Assembly: GCF_003351905.1 (NCBI RefSeq)
Contig: NZ_CP022339.1
Coordinates: 600,001-632,000 of the forward strand
Source: Candidatus Saccharimonadota bacterium
Lineage (GTDB): Bacteria; Bacteroidota; Bacteroidia; Cytophagales; Amoebophilaceae
DNA length: 32,000 nt
Reading direction: 5' to 3'
This document shows, piece by piece, positions 8,250 to 32,000 of the stretch; positions within the stretch are counted from its first letter, which is position 1; every line of letters starts with the position of its first letter. The notes beneath the pieces were generated by a model that was not told where the DNA came from, did no database searches, and worked only from the letters and a program-made list of their open reading frames with translations. Position numbers and translations under genes: made by a program.

Positions 8250-9551
8250 CTATAAACCGCTCATATAAACCAATAAGAATCCGATGCCGATTGCGCCAGC
8301 TATTGAGACCAAACCTGGCAACATAAAACTATGGTTAAAAAGGAACTTACCAATTCGTGTAGTGCCTGTAGTATCTAAATGCATAGCCGCTAACATAGTT
8401 GGATAAATCGGAATAATAAAAACCCCATTAACAGCTGCTGCAGAAGCCAGTAATATTTTAGGCGGAATTCCTAAGGCAATACCTAGTGGAAATACCGCTT
8501 TAATAGTAGCCGCAGAACTGCCCATAATGGAAGCCATGCAGAGTAAGATAATAGAAAATTGCCAAGGTTCAGAAAGGTAAGTGGATATAAACTCTAGTAA
8601 AACCGGTTGGTTGCTCTGCACGAATGTACTGCTTAGCCAAGCAATACCTAGAATCGCAAACATGCCTTGTACGCCAGCCGTAAATGCTTTGCCCTGGGTA
8701 ATGGATTGTGGTGCAATCCGGCATAACAACATAATAGATGCCGCAGTGGATAACATTACCAGTGGCATAATATAGGCAGATGGCAAGCATACCTTTAGGC
8801 CATTTACCTCCCACGAAGGGCGTAAAAATGGCATGGCGTCTATTAAAACCGTAGCTAAACTACCCAGTAAGAAGCAAATAATCGAAAGTTTGGCTACCCT
8901 AGCCCCACGGGGCAGTAGGGTGGCAGCCTGGTTTGTTGTAGCTTTTCCTGGAACCGTTGCAGTCGCTGGCATCTTTTTATTCAATAAACTGGTTACAAAT
9001 GTTGCGATTAATAATCCTCCCAGTGTTGAGGGAATGACAATCTTAAAAATGGTGACCATCTCTATGCCAGCATTCCTTAAAAACCCGCTTAAGATAACCA
9101 TTATAGAAGAAATAGGACTGGCCAGTGCACCGTGCAAAGCGGCAATAACAGAAAGCGATAAAGGCCGTTCCGGGCGAATGCCTACTTCTTTAGATACCTC
9201 TGCAATAACAGGCAGAATAGAATAGGCGATGTGATTGGTACCACCCAAAAAAGTAATTGCATAGGTGACCACAGGGCTGATGTAGATGATGCTACGTGGA
9301 TGTTTGCGGATACATAGCTCAGCCAGTTGAACCAAATAACTCAAGCCACCTGCAGTCTCTATGGTGCCCACTGCAGCAACCACTGCGGCAATACAAAGCA
9401 TGATTTGAAAAGGAGGATCTGCTGGCGTTGCATTTAAAACCACCATAAACAGCCATACACCCAGCCCACCCAGCATACTAAGGCTTAGACCTTGCAACCG
9501 GGCACCCAAGAAAGAAGCAAGCAAAAGTATCGCTAAACCTATCAGAAGCAT
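8250..9551 (-). CDS. Anaerobic C4-dicarboxylate transporter, DcuA/DcuB family
   Basis: 433 aa. FLGARLQGLSLSMLGGLGV, ETAGGLSYLVQLAE, ISPVVTYAITFLGGTNHIAYSILPVIAEVSKEVGIRPERPLS and C-terminal HLDTTGTTRIGKFLFNHSF all match E. coli DcuA closely. Confidence 0.9.
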   Translation of the reverse strand: MLLIGLAILLLASFLGARLQGLSLSMLGGLGVWLFMVVLNATPADPPFQIMLCIAAVVAAVGTIETAGGLSYLVQLAELCIRKHPRSIIYISPVVTYAITFLGGTNHIAYSILPVIAEVSKEVGIRPERPLSLSVIAALHGALASPISSIMVILSGFLRNAGIEMVTIFKIVIPSTLGGLLIATFVTSLLNKKMPATATVPGKATTNQAATLLPRGARVAKLSIICFLLGSLATVLIDAMPFLRPSWEVNGLKVCLPSAYIMPLVMLSTAASIMLLCRIAPQSITQGKAFTAGVQGMFAILGIAWLSSTFVQSNQPVLLEFISTYLSEPWQFSIILLCMASIMGSSAATIKAVFPLGIALGIPPKILLASAAAVNGVFIIPIYPTMLAAMHLDTTGTTRIGKFLFNHSFMLPGLVSIAGAIGIGFLLVYMSGL

Positions 9552-9969: not shown

Positions 9970-11919
9970 ATGTGCAAAAATAATAAACAGTTCCGCTTCA
10001 TAGCGCCTATTTACATAGGAAGCCTATTATTATGGACTATATCCTGTAGTAGACATCTTCCTGTTACTGCAAGCCATTCTGGTGGTGAATGGATAGGAGG
10101 ATGTTGCCATCTGGATGATCCGTGTAGGGTAAAAGATCTAGGTAACCGTGTAGATCAGTTGGATTGGTCTAACGTTGATCTGTGTAAGGTTACAAACCAG
10201 AAGACTGTCTTTTGTGAAACAATAGACAGCTATGATATAGATCAGTTAAACGCACTGCTTACATACCTTAAACGTGACCCTGTAAAATACCCTTATGATA
10301 AGGTCATATATTTAATAGCTGGTTGTGGAAGCAAAAAAATAAAAGGGATGCGCATGTCTCTGTTGTTTAGGAGTGTGTTTAAACAGGATCTAGATATAAT
10401 AGATCTATTGTTTGAAACACTATCTTATTATGACTTAAACGCATGTGCGCAAGCTTTTTTCATACCATTTGGTGCTGGAAAATACACCATGTTGCATCAA
10501 GCGGTAGAATCATCCAACTTAGAAACAGTAATGTGCTTAATAGCGCATTATATCGAAACTAAAAAAAAGCAAGGGGTTGAGCCTTCTGTTCTATCAAATA
10601 GTCTAATAGAGGTTTTAAATATCAAAAATGCAATCAACGAAACACCACTGGATCTCGCATTTGGTACCTATCATTTAAGTTTTGTAGAAAATTCAGCTAT
10701 GATACAATATTTGGCAGCGTATGGGGATCCTTTGTCTCAAATAGACTTGGGGGATAAGTCTGCGTTGTATGCTGCTGCCAAGCGTGGTAATGGCACCCAG
10801 TTACCAATTATGATCGATGCCATAAGAGCCGGATCAAAAAAGATGTATGACCGAAAAGATATAGATATGGTGCGCAAGATTGTCAATTGCGTAGATAAAG
10901 ATGGCCGCACCTTGTTATATTATACGGTGCTAAACCGCAACTATGATGCAGTCGCGTACCTCATGGCACTAGGTGCCAACTGCACATGGTTCGATAAAAA
11001 TGGGGTCTCTCCGCTTTTTATAGCTATTGTGTATGGGGATCTACATATGGTACAATTGTTATTGGATAAAAAATTTCCCGCGAATGCATCGCTACAGGTG
11101 GATATAAATAACAAAGGTAGAGATGGGTTAACACCGCTGAATTTTTCCATTAAGCCTAAACAAAGTGTAGTGCTCATGCCAATACTGCTGTTGCGCAATA
11201 AGCATCGAAGATATAAGGTATTAAAAAATAATATGGATGATGGATGGGATCATGTTGCTATAGGGCATAGCAATGCTCAGATTGTTGCTGCTTTGTTGGA
11301 TGCTGGTGCGCATCCTTTGATACCCAATAATTTGGGTCAGACGCCCCTGCATCTAGCCGTGGAGTCGAACAGCGTATGTTTGGTAGAGCTGCTTCTAGAG
11401 GCTGGGAGCAGTGCGTTATTAAGAGATTGTAAAGGCTATACGCCTTTAGATATAGCCGTGCGGCAGATCCGTGTGCGCGCTTCGAAAGCTTATGATAAGG
11501 GCCATATGCTTAGTATAATTGTAAAAATGTTAGGTGCAGCTATACGTATAAAAAACGTTGGGGTAGATCAAAGTTGTTTGATGCGTATATACAAAGAGGT
11601 TATGTCGGCTTACCAACATGATAACCACAAACGTTCGCGGCATGTATGGGAAGCATCAATGGCGGATCTGTTCCAAAGATATGGCCTCTCAACGTACACC
11701 ACCACGCAACTTAAGGGTACAAAAAGGCGATGCGATGCGCATCCAGGGCTTATTGACCCTACTAAAAGGCGTAAGCGAAACAGTGTTCAGGCCTCTGATG
11801 GTTCATCAAGTGGACGTATGCAGGGAGCGAAGCGGCCTAAGCAATCTCAGTCAAATGCAGTTTCTTTTTTAGATATGCCCCATGCTGTAAGTGTGGACGG
11901 AACAGATCTACTGCCTTAG
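9970..11919 (+). CDS. Ankyrin-repeat protein with a lipoprotein-type signal peptide and a C-terminal basic, NLS-like tail
   Basis: 649 aa. Signal peptide plus Cys (IYIGSLLLWTISCS). ANK repeats include DGRTLLYYTVLNRNYDAVAYLMALGANC, NGVSPLFIAIVYGDLHMVQLLLD, GQTPLHLAVESNSVCLVELLLEAGSSA and KGYTPLDIAV. The tail reads TKRRCDAHPGLIDPTKRRKRN...GAKRPKQ. Confidence 0.85.
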   Translation: MCKNNKQFRFIAPIYIGSLLLWTISCSRHLPVTASHSGGEWIGGCCHLDDPCRVKDLGNRVDQLDWSNVDLCKVTNQKTVFCETIDSYDIDQLNALLTYLKRDPVKYPYDKVIYLIAGCGSKKIKGMRMSLLFRSVFKQDLDIIDLLFETLSYYDLNACAQAFFIPFGAGKYTMLHQAVESSNLETVMCLIAHYIETKKKQGVEPSVLSNSLIEVLNIKNAINETPLDLAFGTYHLSFVENSAMIQYLAAYGDPLSQIDLGDKSALYAAAKRGNGTQLPIMIDAIRAGSKKMYDRKDIDMVRKIVNCVDKDGRTLLYYTVLNRNYDAVAYLMALGANCTWFDKNGVSPLFIAIVYGDLHMVQLLLDKKFPANASLQVDINNKGRDGLTPLNFSIKPKQSVVLMPILLLRNKHRRYKVLKNNMDDGWDHVAIGHSNAQIVAALLDAGAHPLIPNNLGQTPLHLAVESNSVCLVELLLEAGSSALLRDCKGYTPLDIAVRQIRVRASKAYDKGHMLSIIVKMLGAAIRIKNVGVDQSCLMRIYKEVMSAYQHDNHKRSRHVWEASMADLFQRYGLSTYTTTQLKGTKRRCDAHPGLIDPTKRRKRNSVQASDGSSSGRMQGAKRPKQSQSNAVSFLDMPHAVSVDGTDLLP

Positions 11920-14633: not shown

Positions 14634-15989
14634 TTATTTCCCAATGCAGAATTTAGAGAAAATGTCTCCTAAAATCTCTTCTGTGGTAATCTCTCCTGTA
14701 ATTTCACCCAGTGCATATAGTGCCTGGTTGATATCTACAACCAGTAATTCATTGGATCGTTGTTGCGCAAGTCCTGCCATTACAGCTTCTAAAGCTGCTC
14801 TACTTTTTTGTAATCGATCGTAATGGCGTGCATTGACCACAATAGTGGCTAACCCATCGGCAGGTTTTTGTGTGACCAATTGCAAAAGCTGCCCTTTAAG
14901 TTGATTGAGCCCTTTACCAGTTTGTGCAGCCATGCACAAATAATCTTTAAAATCTTCTAGCGCAGCAGGTGGTGCAAGGTCCATTTTATTGCCAATTTTC
15001 AGTAGGGGTACCTCTCCTAAGGCAACCAGATCAGCCTCTGCTTGTTGAAAGGTCATATGGCATAGATCCACCAAGTAGAGTACGATACAAGCTTTGTTGA
15101 GTTGCGCTTTGGTCCGTTCGATGCCTATGGCTTCTATGGCATCCGAAGGCTTTTCGCGTAAACCAGCAGTATCTACAAACCTAAACCGTATGCCTCCTAA
15201 GTGTAATGTGCCCTCAATGGTGTCGCGCGTAGTACCTGCTATAGGCGAAACAATGGCCCGTTCTTCTTGTAATAATGCATTCAATAGGGTTGATTTGCCT
15301 ACATTGGGTCTGCCCACAATCACAACGGAAATACCTTGTTTAATCACGTTACCTAATTGAAAGCTATCGATCAGGCGTGTTAAAGTTTGCATCAGTTTAT
15401 CCGCTAATGTTTGTAATTCCTTGCGCTCTAAAAAGGTGACATCTTCTTCGGAAAAATCTAGTTCTAATGCCAACATTGCTGCAAAATGGCGCAAGTCTTT
15501 ACGTAATGCTTGTAAATCTGTCGAAAACCCCCCACGCATTTGATGAAGGGCCGTTTGGTGGGCCAACATGCTATCGGCTGCAATCAAATCTGCTACCGCT
15601 TCTGCTTGGGCTAAGTCAAAGCGGCCATTTAAAAAAGCCCTTTTGGTGAATTCACCCGGTTCAGCTATGCGCACACCTTGGTCTACCAACAGCTCTATTA
15701 ATTGTGTGACAATGAAAGGCGCACCATGGCAAGAGATTTCTACTGCCTCTTCCCTGGTAAAGGAATGGGGCGCAATAAAAATGGAAACTAGGACTTCATC
15801 AATTTGGGTATCCCCTTTTTTTAGGATGCCAAAATGAACCGTATGAGAGGCTTTTTGGGTCAAGTTACTGCCATGAAACAGCTGGTTCACGATGTTAATT
15901 ACACCCTTTCCAGATAGGCGCACGACTGCAATGGCGCTCATGCCTTGTGGCGTGGCGAGTGCCACAATAGGATCTTGGTTAGGATACAT
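14634..15989 (-). CDS. mnmE: tRNA modification GTPase MnmE (TrmE)
   Basis: 451 aa. N-terminal DPIVALATPQG.SAIAVVRLSG, G-domain GRPNVGKSTLLNAL...DTAG, and the invariant C-terminal FCIGK. Confidence 0.95.
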   Translation of the reverse strand: MYPNQDPIVALATPQGMSAIAVVRLSGKGVINIVNQLFHGSNLTQKASHTVHFGILKKGDTQIDEVLVSIFIAPHSFTREEAVEISCHGAPFIVTQLIELLVDQGVRIAEPGEFTKRAFLNGRFDLAQAEAVADLIAADSMLAHQTALHQMRGGFSTDLQALRKDLRHFAAMLALELDFSEEDVTFLERKELQTLADKLMQTLTRLIDSFQLGNVIKQGISVVIVGRPNVGKSTLLNALLQEERAIVSPIAGTTRDTIEGTLHLGGIRFRFVDTAGLREKPSDAIEAIGIERTKAQLNKACIVLYLVDLCHMTFQQAEADLVALGEVPLLKIGNKMDLAPPAALEDFKDYLCMAAQTGKGLNQLKGQLLQLVTQKPADGLATIVVNARHYDRLQKSRAALEAVMAGLAQQRSNELLVVDINQALYALGEITGEITTEEILGDIFSKFCIGK

Positions 15990-16740
15990 TTTCTTTTATA
16001 AATAAAGTTTCTGGATAACCTACCTCCACTAATGTTAAGCCGTGTGGTGGCATTAAGGTAAGTATAGGACGTGTGCTGGGTTTTTGTCGAATCAGTTGGG
16101 CTACTGTAGTGCTATCCATTTTACCAGTCGCTACTTTAAGGATGGTACCGACAATCGTTCGAACCATACCCCTTAAAAAGCGATTGGCTTGTATGTAAAA
16201 AACAAGCTTGTTGTCCATTGCTACCCAAGTAGCTTCTTTTATGTTGCAGATAAAACTCTTGGTTGCATCAGTTGTCTTGCTAAAAAATTCAAAATCAGCC
16301 TGTACAGAAAATAAACCAGCAATCTGGTTTAATAAGGCAAGCGGTGGCGTGTGGTGCAGCCAAACTGCGCGATCTCTATAAAAAGGATCTTTTTGTGTAA
16401 TGATGGTATAGGCATATCTACGATGGCATGCGTCGAAACGCGCATGTGCACCCTCTACTACTGGACGAATGGCCGTAATGCTGATATCAGATGGCAAAAT
16501 CCTATTGAGCCTATAGATCAAATGTAGCGGGTCTATAGGCGTTATGGAATCAAAATGGGCCACCTGTTGTGTGGCATGCACCCCTTTATCCGTTCGACTG
16601 CTGCCTGAGATCGCAATCGTCCTGGATAAGAGTTTACCAAGTGCTTCTTCGATCACTTGTTGTACAGCACATCCATTTTTTTGAATCTGCCAACCACTAT
16701 AGCCCTTGCCCAGATAGGATATATAGATGAAATAACGCAT
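15979..16740 (-). CDS. truA: tRNA pseudouridine(38-40) synthase TruA
   Basis: 253 aa. MRYFIYISYLGKGYSGWQIQ and catalytic GSSRTDKGVHA. It overlaps the mnmE start by 11 nt. Confidence 0.92.
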   Translation of the reverse strand: MRYFIYISYLGKGYSGWQIQKNGCAVQQVIEEALGKLLSRTIAISGSSRTDKGVHATQQVAHFDSITPIDPLHLIYRLNRILPSDISITAIRPVVEGAHARFDACHRRYAYTIITQKDPFYRDRAVWLHHTPPLALLNQIAGLFSVQADFEFFSKTTDATKSFICNIKEATWVAMDNKLVFYIQANRFLRGMVRTIVGTILKVATGKMDSTTVAQLIRQKPSTRPILTLMPPHGLTLVEVGYPETLFIKENVS

Positions 16741-16959: not shown

Positions 16960-18447
16960 ATGCATTTAGTTCCAGAAAGCTTGCTTATTGCCGGTTCTTT
17001 TTTACTCTTCTTGAGCATTGTCATTACCAAGCTATCTACCCGGTTAGGCATTCCAGCGTTGATTATTTTTTTATTAGTAGGCATGGCGGCAGGCCATGAA
17101 CAGTTGGGCGGTATTGATTTTCATAATCCTATAGCCGCTCAGTTGCTCGGCGCTATTACCTTGAGTTTGATTCTTTTTACAGGGGGTATAGAAACCGAGT
17201 ACAAACATATACGGCCCATTCTTTGGAATGGTATACTACTGGCAACTGTAGGTATTCTCATTACCACGTTTAGTGTGGGCCTATTTGTTTGGGGCATGAC
17301 AACCCTCTGGGGAGGTAGCATGCAATTTACCCTGTTGGAAGGTCTGTTGATGGGTTCAATTGTGGCTTCTACAGATGCAGCTGCTGTTTTTGCAATCATT
17401 CGGGCGAAGAACATGCATCTTAAGGCCAATCTGAGTCCCATGCTAGAACTGGAGTCGGGTAGCAATGATACCATGGCTTGGTTTTTGATGTTTTTATTTA
17501 GAACGCTGCTGCTTACCAACCAAGTCATTAGCCCTATGGAGGCCATTTGGATCTTTATTCAAGAGATGGTTGTAGGTGGCGTAGCTGGCCTTTTAGTTGG
17601 TAAAATCATGTTGGTATTGCTGGACAACCTTCGTTTGGCTAACCGTTCCCTTTACCCTGGTTTGATGCTAGCTGTGGTTATTTTTACCTATTCAGCGACC
17701 CATTTTTTCCATGGCAATGCCTTTCTTGCTGTTTACCTGGTTGGATTGATCTTAGGCAATAAGGATTTCCCACATAAAAAAAGCATCATTCAATTCTGCC
17801 AAGGCGTTTCTTGGTTGATGCAGATCATAATGTTTATTATGCTTGGGCTATTGGTTTACCCTGGTAAACTCATACCTATAGCTGGTATTGGCCTATTGCT
17901 TTCCATCTTTTTAATGTTCATAGCTCGTCCATTGAGTGTATTTATTTCATTGTTTTTTTCTAAAACATTACATTTAAAACATAAGATTTTTATTTCTTGG
18001 GTAGGCCTTAGAGGGGCTGTTCCGATTGTATTTGCTACCTATCCGTTGTTAGATAACATTCACCAAGCAGATGTGATCTACCATATTGTTTTTTTTGTTG
18101 TGCTCACCTCTATCTTGTTTCAAGGCACGACGCTTTCGCCACTTGCCAAGTGGCTACAATTAGAAGCCCCAAAGTTGGAACCTCATGAACCTACCATTCA
18201 ATTATCCAAAGATGTGGACAGTGCATTAATAGAAGTCATTGTTCCCCAAGACTCTCCTGCTATTGGTAAAAAAATAGTTCAGTTGAGCTTTCCAGAAAAT
18301 GTATTGATTGTCCTTATAAAACGCAATGGCGTCTATGTTATTCCCAGAGGTGATACCGTCATTATTGCCTTTGACTTGCTGATGATTATGGCAGAAAAAA
18401 AACAGGCCATTCATCTTATAAAGGAGCAGTTGGGTATAGTACATTAG
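16960..18447 (+). CDS. nhaP2: K+/H+ antiporter, NhaP2/CvrA type (CPA1) with a C-terminal RCK_C/TrkA-C-like domain
   Basis: 495 aa. RLGIPALIIFLLVGMAAG, GSIVASTDAAAVFAI and LELESGSNDTMAWFL align closely with E. coli CvrA. It has a soluble ~90-aa C-terminal tail. Confidence 0.85.
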   Translation: MHLVPESLLIAGSFLLFLSIVITKLSTRLGIPALIIFLLVGMAAGHEQLGGIDFHNPIAAQLLGAITLSLILFTGGIETEYKHIRPILWNGILLATVGILITTFSVGLFVWGMTTLWGGSMQFTLLEGLLMGSIVASTDAAAVFAIIRAKNMHLKANLSPMLELESGSNDTMAWFLMFLFRTLLLTNQVISPMEAIWIFIQEMVVGGVAGLLVGKIMLVLLDNLRLANRSLYPGLMLAVVIFTYSATHFFHGNAFLAVYLVGLILGNKDFPHKKSIIQFCQGVSWLMQIIMFIMLGLLVYPGKLIPIAGIGLLLSIFLMFIARPLSVFISLFFSKTLHLKHKIFISWVGLRGAVPIVFATYPLLDNIHQADVIYHIVFFVVLTSILFQGTTLSPLAKWLQLEAPKLEPHEPTIQLSKDVDSALIEVIVPQDSPAIGKKIVQLSFPENVLIVLIKRNGVYVIPRGDTVIIAFDLLMIMAEKKQAIHLIKEQLGIVH

Positions 18448-28223: not shown

Positions 28224-28278
28224 ATATATGGTGTGCCACACCATAAAAACCATAGAACAGCTTTTTAATTTTAATAAC

Positions 28279-29229
28279 ATGTCCAAACTAGCTGTTATTG
28301 ATTTAGGTACGAATGTTATAAATGTATTGGTAGGAGTAGTGGATCAAGAAACATATACCATACTCTACGAAGAAAAAATTACAAGAGCAATGGTACAGCA
28401 TCCCTTGTACGGGATGCATATCTCATTAGAAGAGCAAAACAATATCGTAGCTACCTTAGTAGCGATTAAAAGAAAGTTAGATATAGATGGCGTTCGTTGT
28501 ATTGTTGCCAAGGCGACCAGCCTCTTACGTGATGCACCTAATGCAGCTGAGGTCATTGAAGCGATTCGTCTTGAAACAGATATTCAAGTAGAAGTTATTT
28601 CCGGTATAGAGGAGGCTACGTTAATTTATCATGGTATTAATTCTTGCTTTACCTTAACAGATGCACACGGCTTGATTATTGATATAGGCGGTGGGAGTGT
28701 GGAGTCTATTATCTTTAACCATTTCGAACCATTATGGGAAAGAAGCTTTGAACTCGGCATACGTCGTGTTGCTGCTCAGTTTGCTTATAGCGACCCTATT
28801 ACCCCTCCTCAAGTAGCCCTTTTAGAAAACTATTATCGTACAGCTTTGGCCCCTTTGTTTGTGGCCACTAAGCGCTATAGGCCCAGTCAACTCATTGGCA
28901 GTTCTGGTGCTTTCCGTACATTGTTGATGTTGTACAAATGCCACTATAACTTTTTACCTATTCAAACAAAAAATAGTAGTATAAAAAGGGTGTCGGCAGA
29001 GCAGTTTTTTAACATTTATCATGTTATACAAACCACACCTGTGCATATTTGGCAAAAACAGCTTGCTATTGAACCCGTTTTTTTAAAACTAATCCCCTTA
29101 TCAGCTATCCTTATTAAGGTGATTCTGACCACATGTAAGCTACAAGAGATCATTATTTCAGACACTTCTCTAAGAACAGGTTTATTTATACGAGAGTGGG
29201 GCCGCTTAAAACAAGAAAAGCTGATTTAA
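28279..29229 (+). CDS. Ppx/GppA family phosphatase, short form (actin-like ATPase domains only)
   Basis: ATG 28279 gives MSKLAVIDLGTNVINVLV (the phosphate-1 motif DxGxN). DIGGGSVE is the phosphate-2 motif. At ~317 aa it lacks the C-terminal extension of E. coli Ppx. Confidence 0.8.
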   Translation: MSKLAVIDLGTNVINVLVGVVDQETYTILYEEKITRAMVQHPLYGMHISLEEQNNIVATLVAIKRKLDIDGVRCIVAKATSLLRDAPNAAEVIEAIRLETDIQVEVISGIEEATLIYHGINSCFTLTDAHGLIIDIGGGSVESIIFNHFEPLWERSFELGIRRVAAQFAYSDPITPPQVALLENYYRTALAPLFVATKRYRPSQLIGSSGAFRTLLMLYKCHYNFLPIQTKNSSIKRVSAEQFFNIYHVIQTTPVHIWQKQLAIEPVFLKLIPLSAILIKVILTTCKLQEIIISDTSLRTGLFIREWGRLKQEKLI

Positions 29230-29640: not shown

Positions 29641-29870
29641 TGTTGCATTTTTCTATGTTATTTTATATTTATCTCCTAGTTTAGGGTATGGATATTACCA
29701 CAGCAAGGCGTTTAGTTAAGTCGTGTTTTAACGGTGTAGGGGCTACACCTATAGCTGAGAAAAGCATGAAACATAGGTATATTTTTATATTGTGGTTACT
29801 CCTATTAAGTAGTTGCCATACGGGCATTAGGCAAGGTGTGCATCCTGTGGATCCCTCTTTTACTGCGGGT
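29641..29870 (+). repeat. Copy 1 of the conserved upstream/5'UTR/signal-peptide cassette of the lipoprotein family
   Basis: It aligns by eye with 30301-30530 and 31781-32000. The block 29781-29870 is nearly identical to 30441-30530. Confidence 0.8.
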
Positions 29871-30143
29871 GCTGATGGTTTTGTTGGTGTTGAGGCGTGC
29901 GCAGAAAGACCTATTGATGCTTATCCACAAACTCATGGTGCTGTTTATTTGATGACTGCTCCTCGTCCTGTTACGCCCGCTGCTGCTGTTGTTGCCGCGG
30001 TGGATACTGCTATTACTCGTTGGGTTAGGTCTATCTCTACGTCTGTCTCTACGTTTATCTTTAGGCCTATCTCTCGTGCTATTAATTATCTTGTGCCTTT
30101 TGTGCCTTGTTATCGTGTGCGTGATCCTGCTGCTCAAGCCTAA
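29766..30143 (+). CDS. Small lipoprotein, family member 1 (MKHRYIFILWLLLLSSC...)
   Basis: Internal ATG 29766 is preferred over the track start at 29688 because it aligns with the starts of the paralogs. Lipobox LLSSC. The body is rich in NNT codons and contains a 12-nt tandem repeat. Confidence 0.65.
   Translation: MKHRYIFILWLLLLSSCHTGIRQGVHPVDPSFTAGADGFVGVEACAERPIDAYPQTHGAVYLMTAPRPVTPAAAVVAAVDTAITRWVRSISTSVSTFIFRPISRAINYLVPFVPCYRVRDPAAQA
30030..30077 (+). repeat. Four imperfect tandem 12-nt units (tctatctctacg / tctgtctctacg / tttatctttagg / cctatctctcgt)
   Basis: Read directly. The units are in frame and encode SIST-SVST-FIFR-PISR. Confidence 0.85.
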
Positions 30144-30300
30144 GCAAAATAGTTCTACTATGTGCTTCGTATAGATTGTTATATTTCCTTTTATACCTTT
30201 TTTTACTAGTTTTTCAAATATACTTTCTTCAACTCAACCCTTGCGCTGCAAAAGGTTTACCCACTAAAACTTTTGTACTATACCTTTATAATAAAATTTA

Positions 30301-30530
30301 TTTCCATCTATATAGTTGTATTTTTCTTATATTTTTTTAAATAATCTATTGATATGCAAATTTAGATAGTAAGCCATTGCGTAAAATTGTTTTTTAGCGG
30401 TGTAATGTTAAACGTATAACTCGGTATGGAACATGGACGCATTTTTATATTGTGGTTACTCCTATTAAGTGGTTGCCATACGGACATTAAGCAGGATGTG
30501 CATCCTGGGGATCCCTCTTTTGTTGCGGGT
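30301..30530 (+). repeat. Copy 2 of the conserved upstream/5'UTR/signal-peptide cassette
   Basis: See copy 1. Shared strings include ttttta(a/g)cggtgta, atttttatattgtggttactcctattaagt and gtgcatcctg.ggatccctctttt. Confidence 0.8.
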
Positions 30531-31637
30531 CCCATGTATCTTACGCATGCTTCTGGTGCTGCTGATTTTGATTCTTCTGTTGCTTCTGCTTTTATGACTG
30601 CTGCGGCTGCTCGTGTGGATGCGGCTGATGCGGATGCGGCTGCTCGTGCTGCGGCTGCTCGTGCCAATACTGCTCTTGCGCGTGCTTTCCCTCTTGATGG
30701 TGGTACGCCTGTTCGGGCTACTATTTCTGGGTCTGCTGTTTTTGCTTGTACTAATGCTGCCGCTGCTTATATGCGTGTTGCTGCATCTGCTGCTGCAGCA
30801 GCAGATGCGTATCTAGTTGCTGCGCGTGCTGCGTATGATGTTGGCCATCCGGTTGCTTATGCCCATGCTTCTGGCTATGCTGATGCATATACTTGTACTT
30901 CTGTTTCTGCTTTGACTGCTGCGGCGTCTTTTGATGCTGCTGCTAAGGCTGCTGCTGTTTCGCATGTGGTTGCTGCTAAGGCTGCTGTTGCTGTTTCGCA
31001 TGCCGGTGATCATGCTGCTGTTTTTGCTGCTGCTGCTAGGGCTGCTGCTACTAAGGCTGCTACCTATGCTACTTCTGTGGCTCGTTCTGCTAATTTGTCT
31101 ACTACAGTTGGCTGTATACGTATGGTTTCTGCTCATGTTGCTTCTATTGCTTCTGCTGCCCGTGCTGCTCATACGGCTCGTGTTGAGGCTGATTCTGCAA
31201 CTCATTCTGCAGATTGTGCTAGGGTTTATGCATATACTGCTCATGCTGCTGTTTCTGCTGCTGCTGCTATTTGTGCACATGCTGATGCTGTGTTTGCGAC
31301 TACTGATGCTGTATTTGCTTATGACCGTGTGGTTGAGGTTGCTGATGCACATATTAATAATGCACGTAAAATTGCTTCTATTAGGGTCCATAATGATACG
31401 GCTTCTGCTGCTTATGAGCGTGCCAGTTCTGCTTCTGTTGATGCTGCTACTGCTGCTGCTGGAGCTACTAAAGCAGCAGCAGCAGTGAGTCGTTTTGCTG
31501 CTGTAGCTGATGTTTCGTCTGTTGAGTCTTCTGTTTCGGATCTATTTGCTGCTGCTGCTCGTGCTGCTGCTGTTGTTGTTGACGCTATTCGTCTGCATGC
31601 TGCTACTGCTGCGAATGCTGTTGCTGCTGCCATATAA
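30426..31637 (+). CDS. Alanine-rich low-complexity lipoprotein, family member 2
   Basis: 403 aa. Signal MEHGRIFILWLLLLSGC with lipobox LLSGC. The mature part is dominated by Ala with Ser/Val/Asp/His/Tyr/Thr/Arg, and codons mostly end in T. The frame was chosen for continuity with the conserved signal peptide and the position-3 T periodicity. Confidence 0.65.
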   Translation: MEHGRIFILWLLLLSGCHTDIKQDVHPGDPSFVAGPMYLTHASGAADFDSSVASAFMTAAAARVDAADADAAARAAAARANTALARAFPLDGGTPVRATISGSAVFACTNAAAAYMRVAASAAAAADAYLVAARAAYDVGHPVAYAHASGYADAYTCTSVSALTAAASFDAAAKAAAVSHVVAAKAAVAVSHAGDHAAVFAAAARAAATKAATYATSVARSANLSTTVGCIRMVSAHVASIASAARAAHTARVEADSATHSADCARVYAYTAHAAVSAAAAICAHADAVFATTDAVFAYDRVVEVADAHINNARKIASIRVHNDTASAAYERASSASVDAATAAAGATKAAAAVSRFAAVADVSSVESSVSDLFAAAARAAAVVVDAIRLHAATAANAVAAAI

Positions 31638-31780: not shown

Positions 31781-32000
31781 TGGTTGTATATTTCTATGTT
31801 TATTTATATAATAACTTATGGTATGAATAATAATTACCCAATGCCCAGGCAGGTTGCTTAAGGTGTTTTTAACGATGTAATGCAAAACGCATAGCTAAGG
31901 AAAACATGGAACATAAAAAAGTTTTTGTACTGTGGTTATTAACGTTAGGTGGATGTAATGCGCTGGTGAAGCACCATATGCATGCTGTAAGTGAATCCTG
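31781..32000 (+). repeat. Copy 3 (more diverged) of the conserved cassette, running off the window
   Basis: tttctatgtttatttatata, ggtatgaataataattaccc and gtgtttttaacgatgtaatg are collinear with copies 1 and 2. Confidence 0.7.
31906..32000 (+). CDS. Lipoprotein family member 3, 5' end only (MEHKKVFVLWLLTLGGCNALVKHHMHAVSES...)
   Basis: An ATG at 31906 lies in the same cassette context, with lipobox LTLGGC. The frame is open to the window end. Confidence 0.6.
   Translation, partial: MEHKKVFVLWLLTLGGCNALVKHHMHAVSES

Follow-up and report, generated by a model that had tools for sequence, protein, structure and literature searches.

The Vlp, Vsp and Vsa lipoproteins of Mycoplasma are encoded by clustered genes with a conserved 5' region and a lipoprotein signal, and their divergent low-complexity or repeat bodies vary in size as repeats are gained and lost in frame. 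At the DNA level, (GCT)n is (CTG)n read in another phase, and CTG/CAG trinucleotide repeats are known for their instability. In fish, the Ala-rich helices encoded by type I antifreeze genes rely on one Ala codon, a preference that is specific to these genes and absent from the rest of the genome (GCT at >70% in the cunner), and their coding region is hyper-mutable relative to its flanks, a behavior attributed to unequal recombination (PMC3855684). Here, we focused on an Ala-rich open reading frame (ORF) at positions 30426-31637 (+ strand) of a 32,000-nt window, the whole stretch of DNA analyzed, which is part of the chromosome of Cardinium cSfur, an endosymbiont of the planthopper Sogatella furcifera, as identified by the neighboring proteins Ppx and bS1, which match those of cSfur exactly. 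The explanation that we favor, with fair but far from full confidence, is that this ORF is an unannotated coding gene for an Ala-rich lipoprotein of a fast-evolving Cardinium family, whose body arose by slippage of (GCT)n repeats. As judged from its sequence, it is part of a gene family that is real, unannotated and lineage-specific and whose structure of NNT codons (codons ending in T) is unusually pure, and this family belongs to neither the antifreeze proteins nor the Mycoplasma-type variable lipoproteins.

The ORF, delimited from the ORF list and its homologues, consists of 403 codons and a TAA terminator at 31635-31637. Its 403-amino-acid product was absent from a collection of 15 billion proteins that holds exact copies of the neighboring Ppx and bS1, and nine alternative ORFs of the region were absent from it as well; the ORF has no product on public record, and the gene is unannotated. 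It divides into a conserved N-terminal cassette of normal composition (30426-30530, +), delimited as a direct repeat and from the fine-scale profile, where the share of codons with T at position 3 (T3) is 0.37, and a mature domain of 368 codons (30531-31634, +) that is set apart by its composition (38% Ala, 76% NNT codons, 13% A). An earlier sequence-only reading of 30531-31637 had described a + strand depleted in A, and this is borne out: the region holds 13.0% A, 37.0% T, 26.8% G and 23.1% C against a window mean of 28.4% A, and its A fraction is the lowest among all 1107-nt stretches of the window, about 4 standard deviations under the mean. Codons read in the signal-peptide frame have G at position 1 in 58% of cases, C at position 2 in 54% and T at position 3 in 76% (A in 6.8%, C in 4.3%). 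As a baseline, T3 is 0.26-0.41 in the window's 20 other long ORFs, and the protein's own amino acid composition combined with background codon usage gives an expected T3 of 0.40; both the third-position T and the A depletion are clearly unusual for the window.

This bias reaches well beyond Ala. Ala accounts for 141 of the 368 mature residues, in line with the earlier estimate of a third or more, and GCT encodes 106 of these, but T-ending codons also make up 74-100% of the codons for V, S, T, R, I, D, H, Y, N and C (background, 24-82%). Residues for which no NNT codon exists (K+E+Q+M+W) amount to 3.5% of the mature domain versus 17.8% in the background; there is no Gln and no Trp, Pro occurs four times, Asp outnumbers Glu by 22:4 and Arg outnumbers Lys by 20:5, and His and Tyr are common, so that the rarity of Lys, Glu, Gln, Met and Pro and the lack of Trp that had been read by eye hold up when counted. 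The same is true of the shortness of the (GCT)n runs, the longest pure run being 4 units in cSfur (6 in the homologues from Philonthus described below). The gene resembles those of the type I antifreeze proteins in encoding an Ala-rich, predicted helical protein with one favored Ala codon and in its behavior at the DNA level. However, the antifreeze proteins are eukaryotic, secreted, short and ice-binding and have no sequence similarity to the cSfur product, which is a predicted bacterial lipoprotein, and the cSfur bias spans nearly all codons rather than those for Ala.

A scan for 450-nt segments with a T3 of at least 0.6 was run across nine Cardinium stretches (L001-L007 together with the window; L003/L005 and L001/L004/L007 are near-duplicate strains). 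It matched the genes of this family and, outside the family, only the edges of two other low-complexity genes (T3 of 0.60-0.63). As a separate observation, the Gly/Ser/Ala low-complexity part of a protein in an Afp-like contractile-injection cluster (L002 17791-18480) reaches a T3 of up to 0.63, which suggests that small-residue low-complexity tracts of Cardinium tend towards NNT codons.

Next to repeat expansion, the sequence-only reading had proposed a strand-specific mutational process. Such a process, transcription- or replication-associated, would deplete A and enrich T on the sense strand, and the AT skew of -0.57 to -0.39 along the gene is in keeping with it. But nearly all of this skew sits at codon position 3, while at positions 1 and 2 A (14-17%) and T (16-19%) are about equal, as strand-symmetric, AT-biased decay of G at position 1 and C at position 2 predicts. 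The edges of the skew are also sharp: it sets in at about 30516-30530, right behind the signal-peptide cassette and inside the same ORF, and breaks off with the stop codon at 31637. Adjacent same-strand genes are normal, and the identical signature recurs at a different locus in another strain. Together, these observations leave a strand-specific process highly improbable.

The ORF begins with what appears to be a lipoprotein signal. Substrates of signal peptidase II (SPase II) have a positive n-region and a hydrophobic h-region, and their lipobox, [LVI][ASTVI][GAS]C, falls in roughly the first 35 residues. Read by eye against this consensus, the N terminus of the ORF has all three (charged n-region, hydrophobic h-region and lipobox in the layout MEHGR-IFILWLLLL-SG-C17), with the signal peptide MEHGRIFILWLLLLSG (30426-30476, +) leading to Cys17 of the lipobox L-S-G-C. 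The product would therefore be a predicted lipid-anchored protein. The signal peptide belongs to a larger 5' cassette, which is repeated within the locus: 30426-30530 recurs with 87% identity at 29766-29870 as a direct repeat of 105 nt, and the part of the cassette upstream of the ATG (30300-30425, +), a putative promoter and 5' untranslated region, aligns with the regions upstream of two paralogues and of the gene in the TP strain. This upstream part carries the conserved motif TTTAGCGGTGTA at 30393-30404 (+), 22 nt ahead of the ATG. By motif count, TTTWRCGRTGTA occurs exactly three times in the window (29727, 30393 and 31868), each time 22-28 nt before a family ATG, against a chance expectation of 0.03; the TP-like genes and one gene from Philonthus have it upstream as well.

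These three occurrences mark three tandem genes, P1, P2 and P3, with a common upstream region, P2 being the Ala-rich gene itself. P1 (29766-30143, +; from the ORF list and codon profile) has the same cassette, starts with MKHRYIFILWLLLLSSC, encodes 125 amino acids with a T3 of 0.57-0.63 and is the inner part of the annotated WP_114910081.1. The start of P3 (31907-32000, +; from the sequence and the upstream alignment), MEHKKVFVLWLLTLGGC..., runs out of the window. Lipoboxes of the relatives read LSSC in P1, LGGC in P3, CSC in L006 and LGGC in L005, and P1, P3 and the two homologues from Philonthus all begin with the same signal architecture. The family hallmark, a 5' motif followed by an N terminus of the type MEHxx/MGYKK-hydrophobic-lipobox, is likewise present in the cSfur gene. 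Within the body of P1, a 12-nt unit, GTCTATCTCTAC, is repeated 3.8 times in tandem (30029-30074; SISTSVST...), and this T3-rich body (0.57-0.63) has only ~13% Ala. The T run just 5' of the motif (29727-29738, 30393-30404 and 31868-31879) also varies, from T4 in P1 to T6 in P2 and T5 in P3, with a run of three in the TP strain and T4 in one Philonthus copy; with lengths of 3-6, this run is variable yet too short for classical phase variation.

The common 5' cassette and signal peptide, together with divergent, repeat-derived and size-variable bodies, recall the variable lipoproteins of Mycoplasma. In contrast to these, there is no homology (the cSfur protein has no match in Pfam, NCBIfam or PDB sequences), the locus has neither a long promoter homopolymer, its T runs being 3-6 nt long, nor an invertible element, and where the Mycoplasma genes have long identical units, its repeats are short and imperfect. 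An inverted-repeat search returned only GCT/GCA low-complexity pairs within the body and no flanking inverted repeats. Moreover, for an intracellular insect symbiont, antibody evasion is not an obvious driver.

To place the gene in a wider context, we searched for homologues. Word-indexed searches with the full protein, P1 and a family alignment gave nothing new, because Ala-rich words swamped the candidates. An exhaustive HMMER search retrieved three proteins, namely, a TP-like ORF, P1 and a 427-amino-acid protein, and missed a fourth relative of 469 amino acids; phmmer E values were 6e-20 to the TP-like ORF and 3e-4 to protein P0014. The 427-amino-acid homologue is from the Cardinium of Philonthus spinipes, where its gene lies between lpxA and oppA, and it has a signal peptide similar to that of cSfur, 28.5% Ala, GCT at 94 of its 122 Ala codons and a T3 of 0.72, compared to 0.36-0.41 in the neighboring genes. 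This lpxA-oppA gene is also the Philonthus copy with the upstream motif and T4 run mentioned above. The 469-amino-acid gene of the same strain occupies the syntenic ppx-atpC site and encodes a lipobox signal (MEHKKV...), with 33% Ala, a T3 of 0.78 and 13.9% A; it has the family N terminus but not the exact upstream motif. The three intact genes (cSfur and the two from Philonthus) are only 29-36% identical in pairs. Nevertheless, the non-Ala motifs CIR, AYDRV, NNAR(K/R)(I/L)AS and a C-terminal RL are kept across all three, as are the deficit in K, E, Q, M and W (3.5-5.1%), the excess of Asp over Glu and that of Arg over Lys. The features that define a family body, at least 28% Ala, a T3 of at least 0.7, AYDRV, NNARK/R-I/L-AS and RL, are all found in the cSfur gene.

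These homologues also bear on the reading frame. The sequence-only reading had described all six frames across 30531-31637 as open and had held that ORF length cannot identify the coding frame. The long Leu-rich, Ser-rich and antisense Ala-rich ORFs that it mentioned are present in the ORF list, but only three frames are nearly stop-free (+0 with 1 stop, which is the terminator, -0 with 2 and +1 with 5) and the other three are not (-1 with 12, -2 with 27 and +2 with 34). As for length, an open frame of 368 codons has a P of 0.08 given the position-specific composition, so that length alone is indeed weak evidence; the frame can, however, be identified via the homologues. In each of the three intact genes the Ala frame (+0) is the sole stop-free frame, the other five having 3-57 stops, and it is continuous with the lipobox signal peptide and carries the non-Ala motifs conserved between homologues. 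It is thus the conservation of an open frame across homologues, not ORF length, that shows the Ala frame to be the predicted coding frame of ORF 30426-31637. An overlapping or antisense gene was ruled out by the stops that the alternative frames carry in each homologue.

Pfam, NCBIfam and PDB-sequence searches and a plasmid tblastn search gave no match, and in the Cardinium literature that we searched there was no description of this Ala-rich family. We rejected horizontal acquisition from a donor with a different codon usage, given that no homologue was found outside Cardinium and that the 5' cassette is native in composition. These searches show what we take from the sequences to be a Cardinium-restricted family, present as a tandem triplicate in cSfur and at two loci in the Philonthus strain. 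The latter has, in addition, three further lipoprotein genes without Pfam domains between the genes for enoyl-CoA hydratase and bS1 (L006 6204-9826), with moderately raised T3 values of 0.53, 0.51 and 0.44; cSfur has only ~420 bp there.

Comparison with other strains indicates rapid turnover of the locus. The TP strain, whose Ppx is 96% identical, has a single gene at the site, with an upstream region like that of cSfur P1 and a body like that of P2. This arrangement would be explained most simply by removal of 660 nt through recombination between the P1 and P2 cassettes, which are 87% identical (TP region L001 11400-11620 versus window 29766-30143); the alternative would be a duplication in cSfur. 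The TP gene is damaged: the T5 run within its signal peptide has undergone a -1 change that leads to a TAG stop, a +4 insertion precedes the body, and a further frameshift lies near the 3' end. The upstream lesions and the premature C-terminal end are repeated in an independent Logan assembly, and a third TP-like metagenome-assembled genome has the same 228-amino-acid truncated ORF; seen across three independent assemblies, the lesions are thus real. In the Nabis limbatus strain there is no gene between ppx and atpC. Since the gene is frameshifted in the TP lineage and has been lost or pseudogenized in some strains, it is dispensable.

Within the body itself, the cSfur and TP sequences can be well aligned over ~730 nt, with 182 gap-free aligned codons. 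They differ by six indels of 3, 3, 48, 51, 24 and 51 nt, every one a multiple of three, and several of these coincide with local tandem duplications, which agrees with the size variation that had been expected from in-frame triplet slippage. Substitutions at codon positions 1, 2 and 3 number 38, 35 and 22, respectively, and the nonsynonymous and synonymous rates are 0.218 (dN) and 0.149 (dS), giving a ratio (omega) of 1.46, whereas the neighboring Ppx has an omega of 0.12 at a dS of 0.122. Compared to the Philonthus gene, omega is ~1.2, versus 0.07-0.12 for housekeeping genes at a dS of 0.6-0.9. The body therefore evolves with a dN/dS of at least 1 in both comparisons.

How could such a body have arisen? 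When the codons of the mature domain are sorted by their distance from GCT, GCT itself accounts for 106, the six one-step NNT codons account for 99, the nine two-step NNT codons account for 75, and GCA, GCC and GCG together account for 35. We infer from this spectrum an ancestry in a GCT repeat of the CTG/CAG class, followed by divergence. The expansion of a GCT trinucleotide that the sequence-only reading had suggested thus receives support from both the codon spectrum and the internal tandem duplications of 9 to 36 nt, whose periods are 9, 12, 15, 18 and 33/36 nt. Tandem Repeats Finder reports a period-15 array with 4.2 copies of an AAAAR-like pentapeptide at 30599-30664 (+). A 33/36-nt duplication at 30939-31007 (+; AAKAAAVSHVV / AAKAAVAVSHAG) can be read in the sequence, and one of the 51-nt indels, the lack of 30932-30982 in TP, corresponds to about one copy's worth of it. 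The tandem-repeat search further gave a period-15 repeat at 31026-31061 (+), which overlaps the 24-nt indel in the TP alignment, and a period-18 repeat at 31237-31284 (+). The inverted-repeat search located a palindromic junction from (GCT)n to (GCA)n at 30786-30806 (CTGCTGCAGCAG) and a second quasi-palindrome at 31447-31485 (CTACTGCTGCTGCT ... AGCAGCAGCAGCAG; pairs I9 and I14), whose arms are 11 nt apart; by analogy, both may be hairpin or template-switch footprints of the kind typical of CTG/CAG tracts.

The locus would share with unstable CTG/CAG repeats its in-phase indels and these hairpin-type quasi-palindromes at GCT/GCA junctions. It differs in that it has only short pure tracts, of up to 4 units in cSfur and up to 6 in Philonthus, with heavy interruption, so that present-day slippage would proceed mostly via longer, imperfect units of 9-51 nt. 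Diversity-generating retroelements act on a variable repeat that differs from its template repeat at adenines, with a reverse transcriptase encoded nearby. The repeat search of the window turned up no long direct repeat of the body. A diversity-generating retroelement target was rejected on this ground and on the lack of a Pfam reverse-transcriptase match in 20 ORFs of the window (18 of them with at least 100 amino acids; the scan left out ORFs 15979-16740 and 16960-18447).

Taken together, our preferred explanation would run as follows. A lipobox signal peptide of normal composition, ending at Cys17, would be followed by a 368-residue, predicted helical, Ala-rich low-complexity domain, and the family members would have in common the 5' cassette (upstream motif and signal peptide) while their bodies have become very divergent. 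The body would derive from (GCT)n arrays of the CTG/CAG class and still turn over by slipped-strand events or unequal recombination of such arrays, and later change would consist mostly of point substitutions at codon positions 1 and 2, either without purifying constraint or under diversifying selection. Since such changes keep T at position 3, most residues other than Ala would be ones that have an NNT codon within reach (V, S, D, T, R as CGT, H and Y), with K, E, Q, M and W near zero.

Several points weigh against this explanation. The P of 0.08 makes the intactness of the frame weak evidence; in the closest ortholog, that of the TP lineage in three assemblies, the gene is frameshifted, with its signal peptide destroyed and its 3' end shifted; and a dN/dS of at least 1 is equally expected of decaying sequence. 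The single-sequence AlphaFold model is unreliable, with a confidence score (pLDDT) of 41, and the body has no significant amphipathic or heptad periodicity (hydrophobicity power at periods of 3.5, 3.6 and 7). At the codon level, CGT, two rare transversions away from GCT, occurs 16 times, while the one-step codons CCT and GGT occur only 2 and 4 times, and each of the four invariant Arg columns has CGT in every one of the three genes. Finally, a neutral model requires an ancestor with a T3 of ~0.95 for today's 0.76-0.78, which hints at active maintenance.

Alternatively, the cSfur copy might be nonfunctional, either a decaying remnant or a noncoding triplet-derived tract that has stayed open since A-poor sequence rarely makes stops. 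The absence of the region from public protein annotation, the value of 0.08 obtained by position-specific shuffling, the dN/dS of at least 1, the frameshifted TP ortholog and the missing gene in the Nabis strain all agree with this notion. Yet the lipobox signal from which the frame runs on is intact, the upstream motif is conserved, every body indel relative to TP is a multiple of 3, and another strain has intact homologues of 427 and 469 codons in which only the Ala frame is open and the non-Ala motifs are conserved in spite of an identity of 29-36%. The scarcity of CCT and GGT compared to the other one-step neighbors of GCT (GTT, TCT, GAT and ACT; 17-29 each) also speaks against free decay. 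A nonfunctional copy is therefore unlikely in our view.

More serious is the possibility that the NNT signature is maintained, by selection or by a biased third-position process, a reading under which the amino acid repertoire would be a consequence of the codon constraint and which leaves the gene and its family assignment unchanged. The CGT excess and the invariant Arg columns imply that pure neutral decay of GCT is not the whole story, and the scarcity of CCT and GGT together with the CGT excess is evidence for some protein-level filtering of codons. The neutral model, based on 1076 four-fold sites of eight housekeeping genes, has T retained at 0.81 per lineage since the split of cSfur and Philonthus. 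Such an ancestor, with ~95% T3, would be extreme, though possible. The family may be young and have been born almost pure NNT; otherwise, T3 has been maintained, which could happen via preferential re-expansion of the purest tracts or via selection. In favor of maintenance, a T3 of 0.72-0.83 is kept in three genes with 29-36% identity, while housekeeping genes of the same strains have reached the dS of 0.6-0.9 given above. T3 is ~70-74% even in the most conserved, nonrepetitive C-terminal motif region (manual count), all 12 invariant Arg codons are CGT, against a background in which 27% of Arg codons end in T, and D, R, H and Y stand in place of the usual helix formers E and K.

Conceivable causes of maintenance are decoding supply for a protein with 30-40% Ala, avoidance of A in the mRNA and re-expansion of pure GCT tracts. 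However, no mechanism is known for it. The highly expressed bS1 has an ordinary T3 of only 0.34, so that strong translational selection of the ordinary kind is unlikely in cSfur, and mRNA folding is ordinary as well (z = +0.55). Aligned codons both end in T at a frequency of 0.60-0.64, compared to 0.58-0.63 from the product of the T3 frequencies, a match that an all-T ancestor decaying independently in each gene would produce as well. We thus hold maintenance only as a tentative alternative to slippage followed by divergence. A structured RNA was rejected as an explanation, as no Rfam family scored above its gathering score and folding was ordinary. Similarly tentative is a bolder statement of the significance of the locus, by which its amino acid alphabet would be set by a maintained T-at-third-base rule, or a CTG/CAG microsatellite, captured downstream of a lipoprotein signal cassette, would have given rise to a new family by de novo birth of the body, now under diversifying selection where symbiont and host meet.

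The Ala-rich body of the predicted protein is of low complexity, with few Pro and Gly, and the secondary structure in the AlphaFold model is all-helical with ~10 helices; given the low score of this model, an all-helical body can be proposed with low confidence. A lipobox at the N terminus followed by an Ala-rich, predicted all-helical mature part is reminiscent of the Braun lipoprotein Lpp and of other Ala-rich helical lipoproteins, among them the Borrelia Vlp and VlsE proteins. Unlike these, the cSfur protein has no heptad or 3.6-residue periodicity and matches neither a Pfam family nor a solved structure, and Lys and Glu, abundant in those proteins, are nearly absent from it. Regarding its function, the sequence features suggest an envelope lipoprotein of the symbiont that would be lipid-anchored, dispensable, variable in copy number and fast evolving. 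Loss or pseudogenization in some strains, variable copy number and fast evolution would fit a surface component that is host-facing or otherwise weakly constrained, and we speculate that the protein is located at the symbiont envelope and faces the host.

These genes form a previously unrecognized, Cardinium-specific family of predicted lipoproteins in a symbiont studied for its reproductive manipulation, where envelope proteins that evolve fast are obvious candidates for interaction with the host. The family is also a clean bacterial case where NNT codon structure visibly dictates protein composition, and a tractable system for the birth of coding sequence from triplet repeats, in which a relic signature can be set against a maintained one. 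For annotation, it serves as a warning: the cSfur gene has no public product, TP-like strains have it called only as a truncated ORF without a signal peptide, and low complexity defeats word-indexed homology searches.

Additionally, we noted several features in the surroundings of the gene. In other strains, atpC lies downstream of the locus, and after it come Afp/T6SS-iv-like contractile-injection genes (T6SS, type VI secretion system; Pvc16_N, sheath, gp19 and CIS_tube; L001 12615 onward and L006 20282 onward), a region that the window stops short of. Upstream, the cSfur Ppx/GppA (28228-29229, +) is annotated with 333 amino acids, while its orthologues in three other strains have 315-316 and begin 17 codons later, at a conserved MSKLAV; the annotated cSfur start is probably over-extended. 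At the far end of the window, a 252-amino-acid ORF (977-1735, -) matches the Pfam family Mito_carr (mitochondrial carrier) above the gathering score, with an E value of 1.5e-9, a eukaryote-type solute carrier inside a bacterial endosymbiont. Two ankyrin-repeat proteins (2428-3441, + and 9970-11919, +) are typical eukaryote-like effector candidates of intracellular symbionts. Between them lie tandem DcuA/DcuB C4-dicarboxylate transporter paralogues (7081-8223, - and 8250-9551, -), with E values of 5e-21 for the first and 7e-98 for the second; given its far weaker match, the paralogue at 7081-8223 may be diverging or degenerating.

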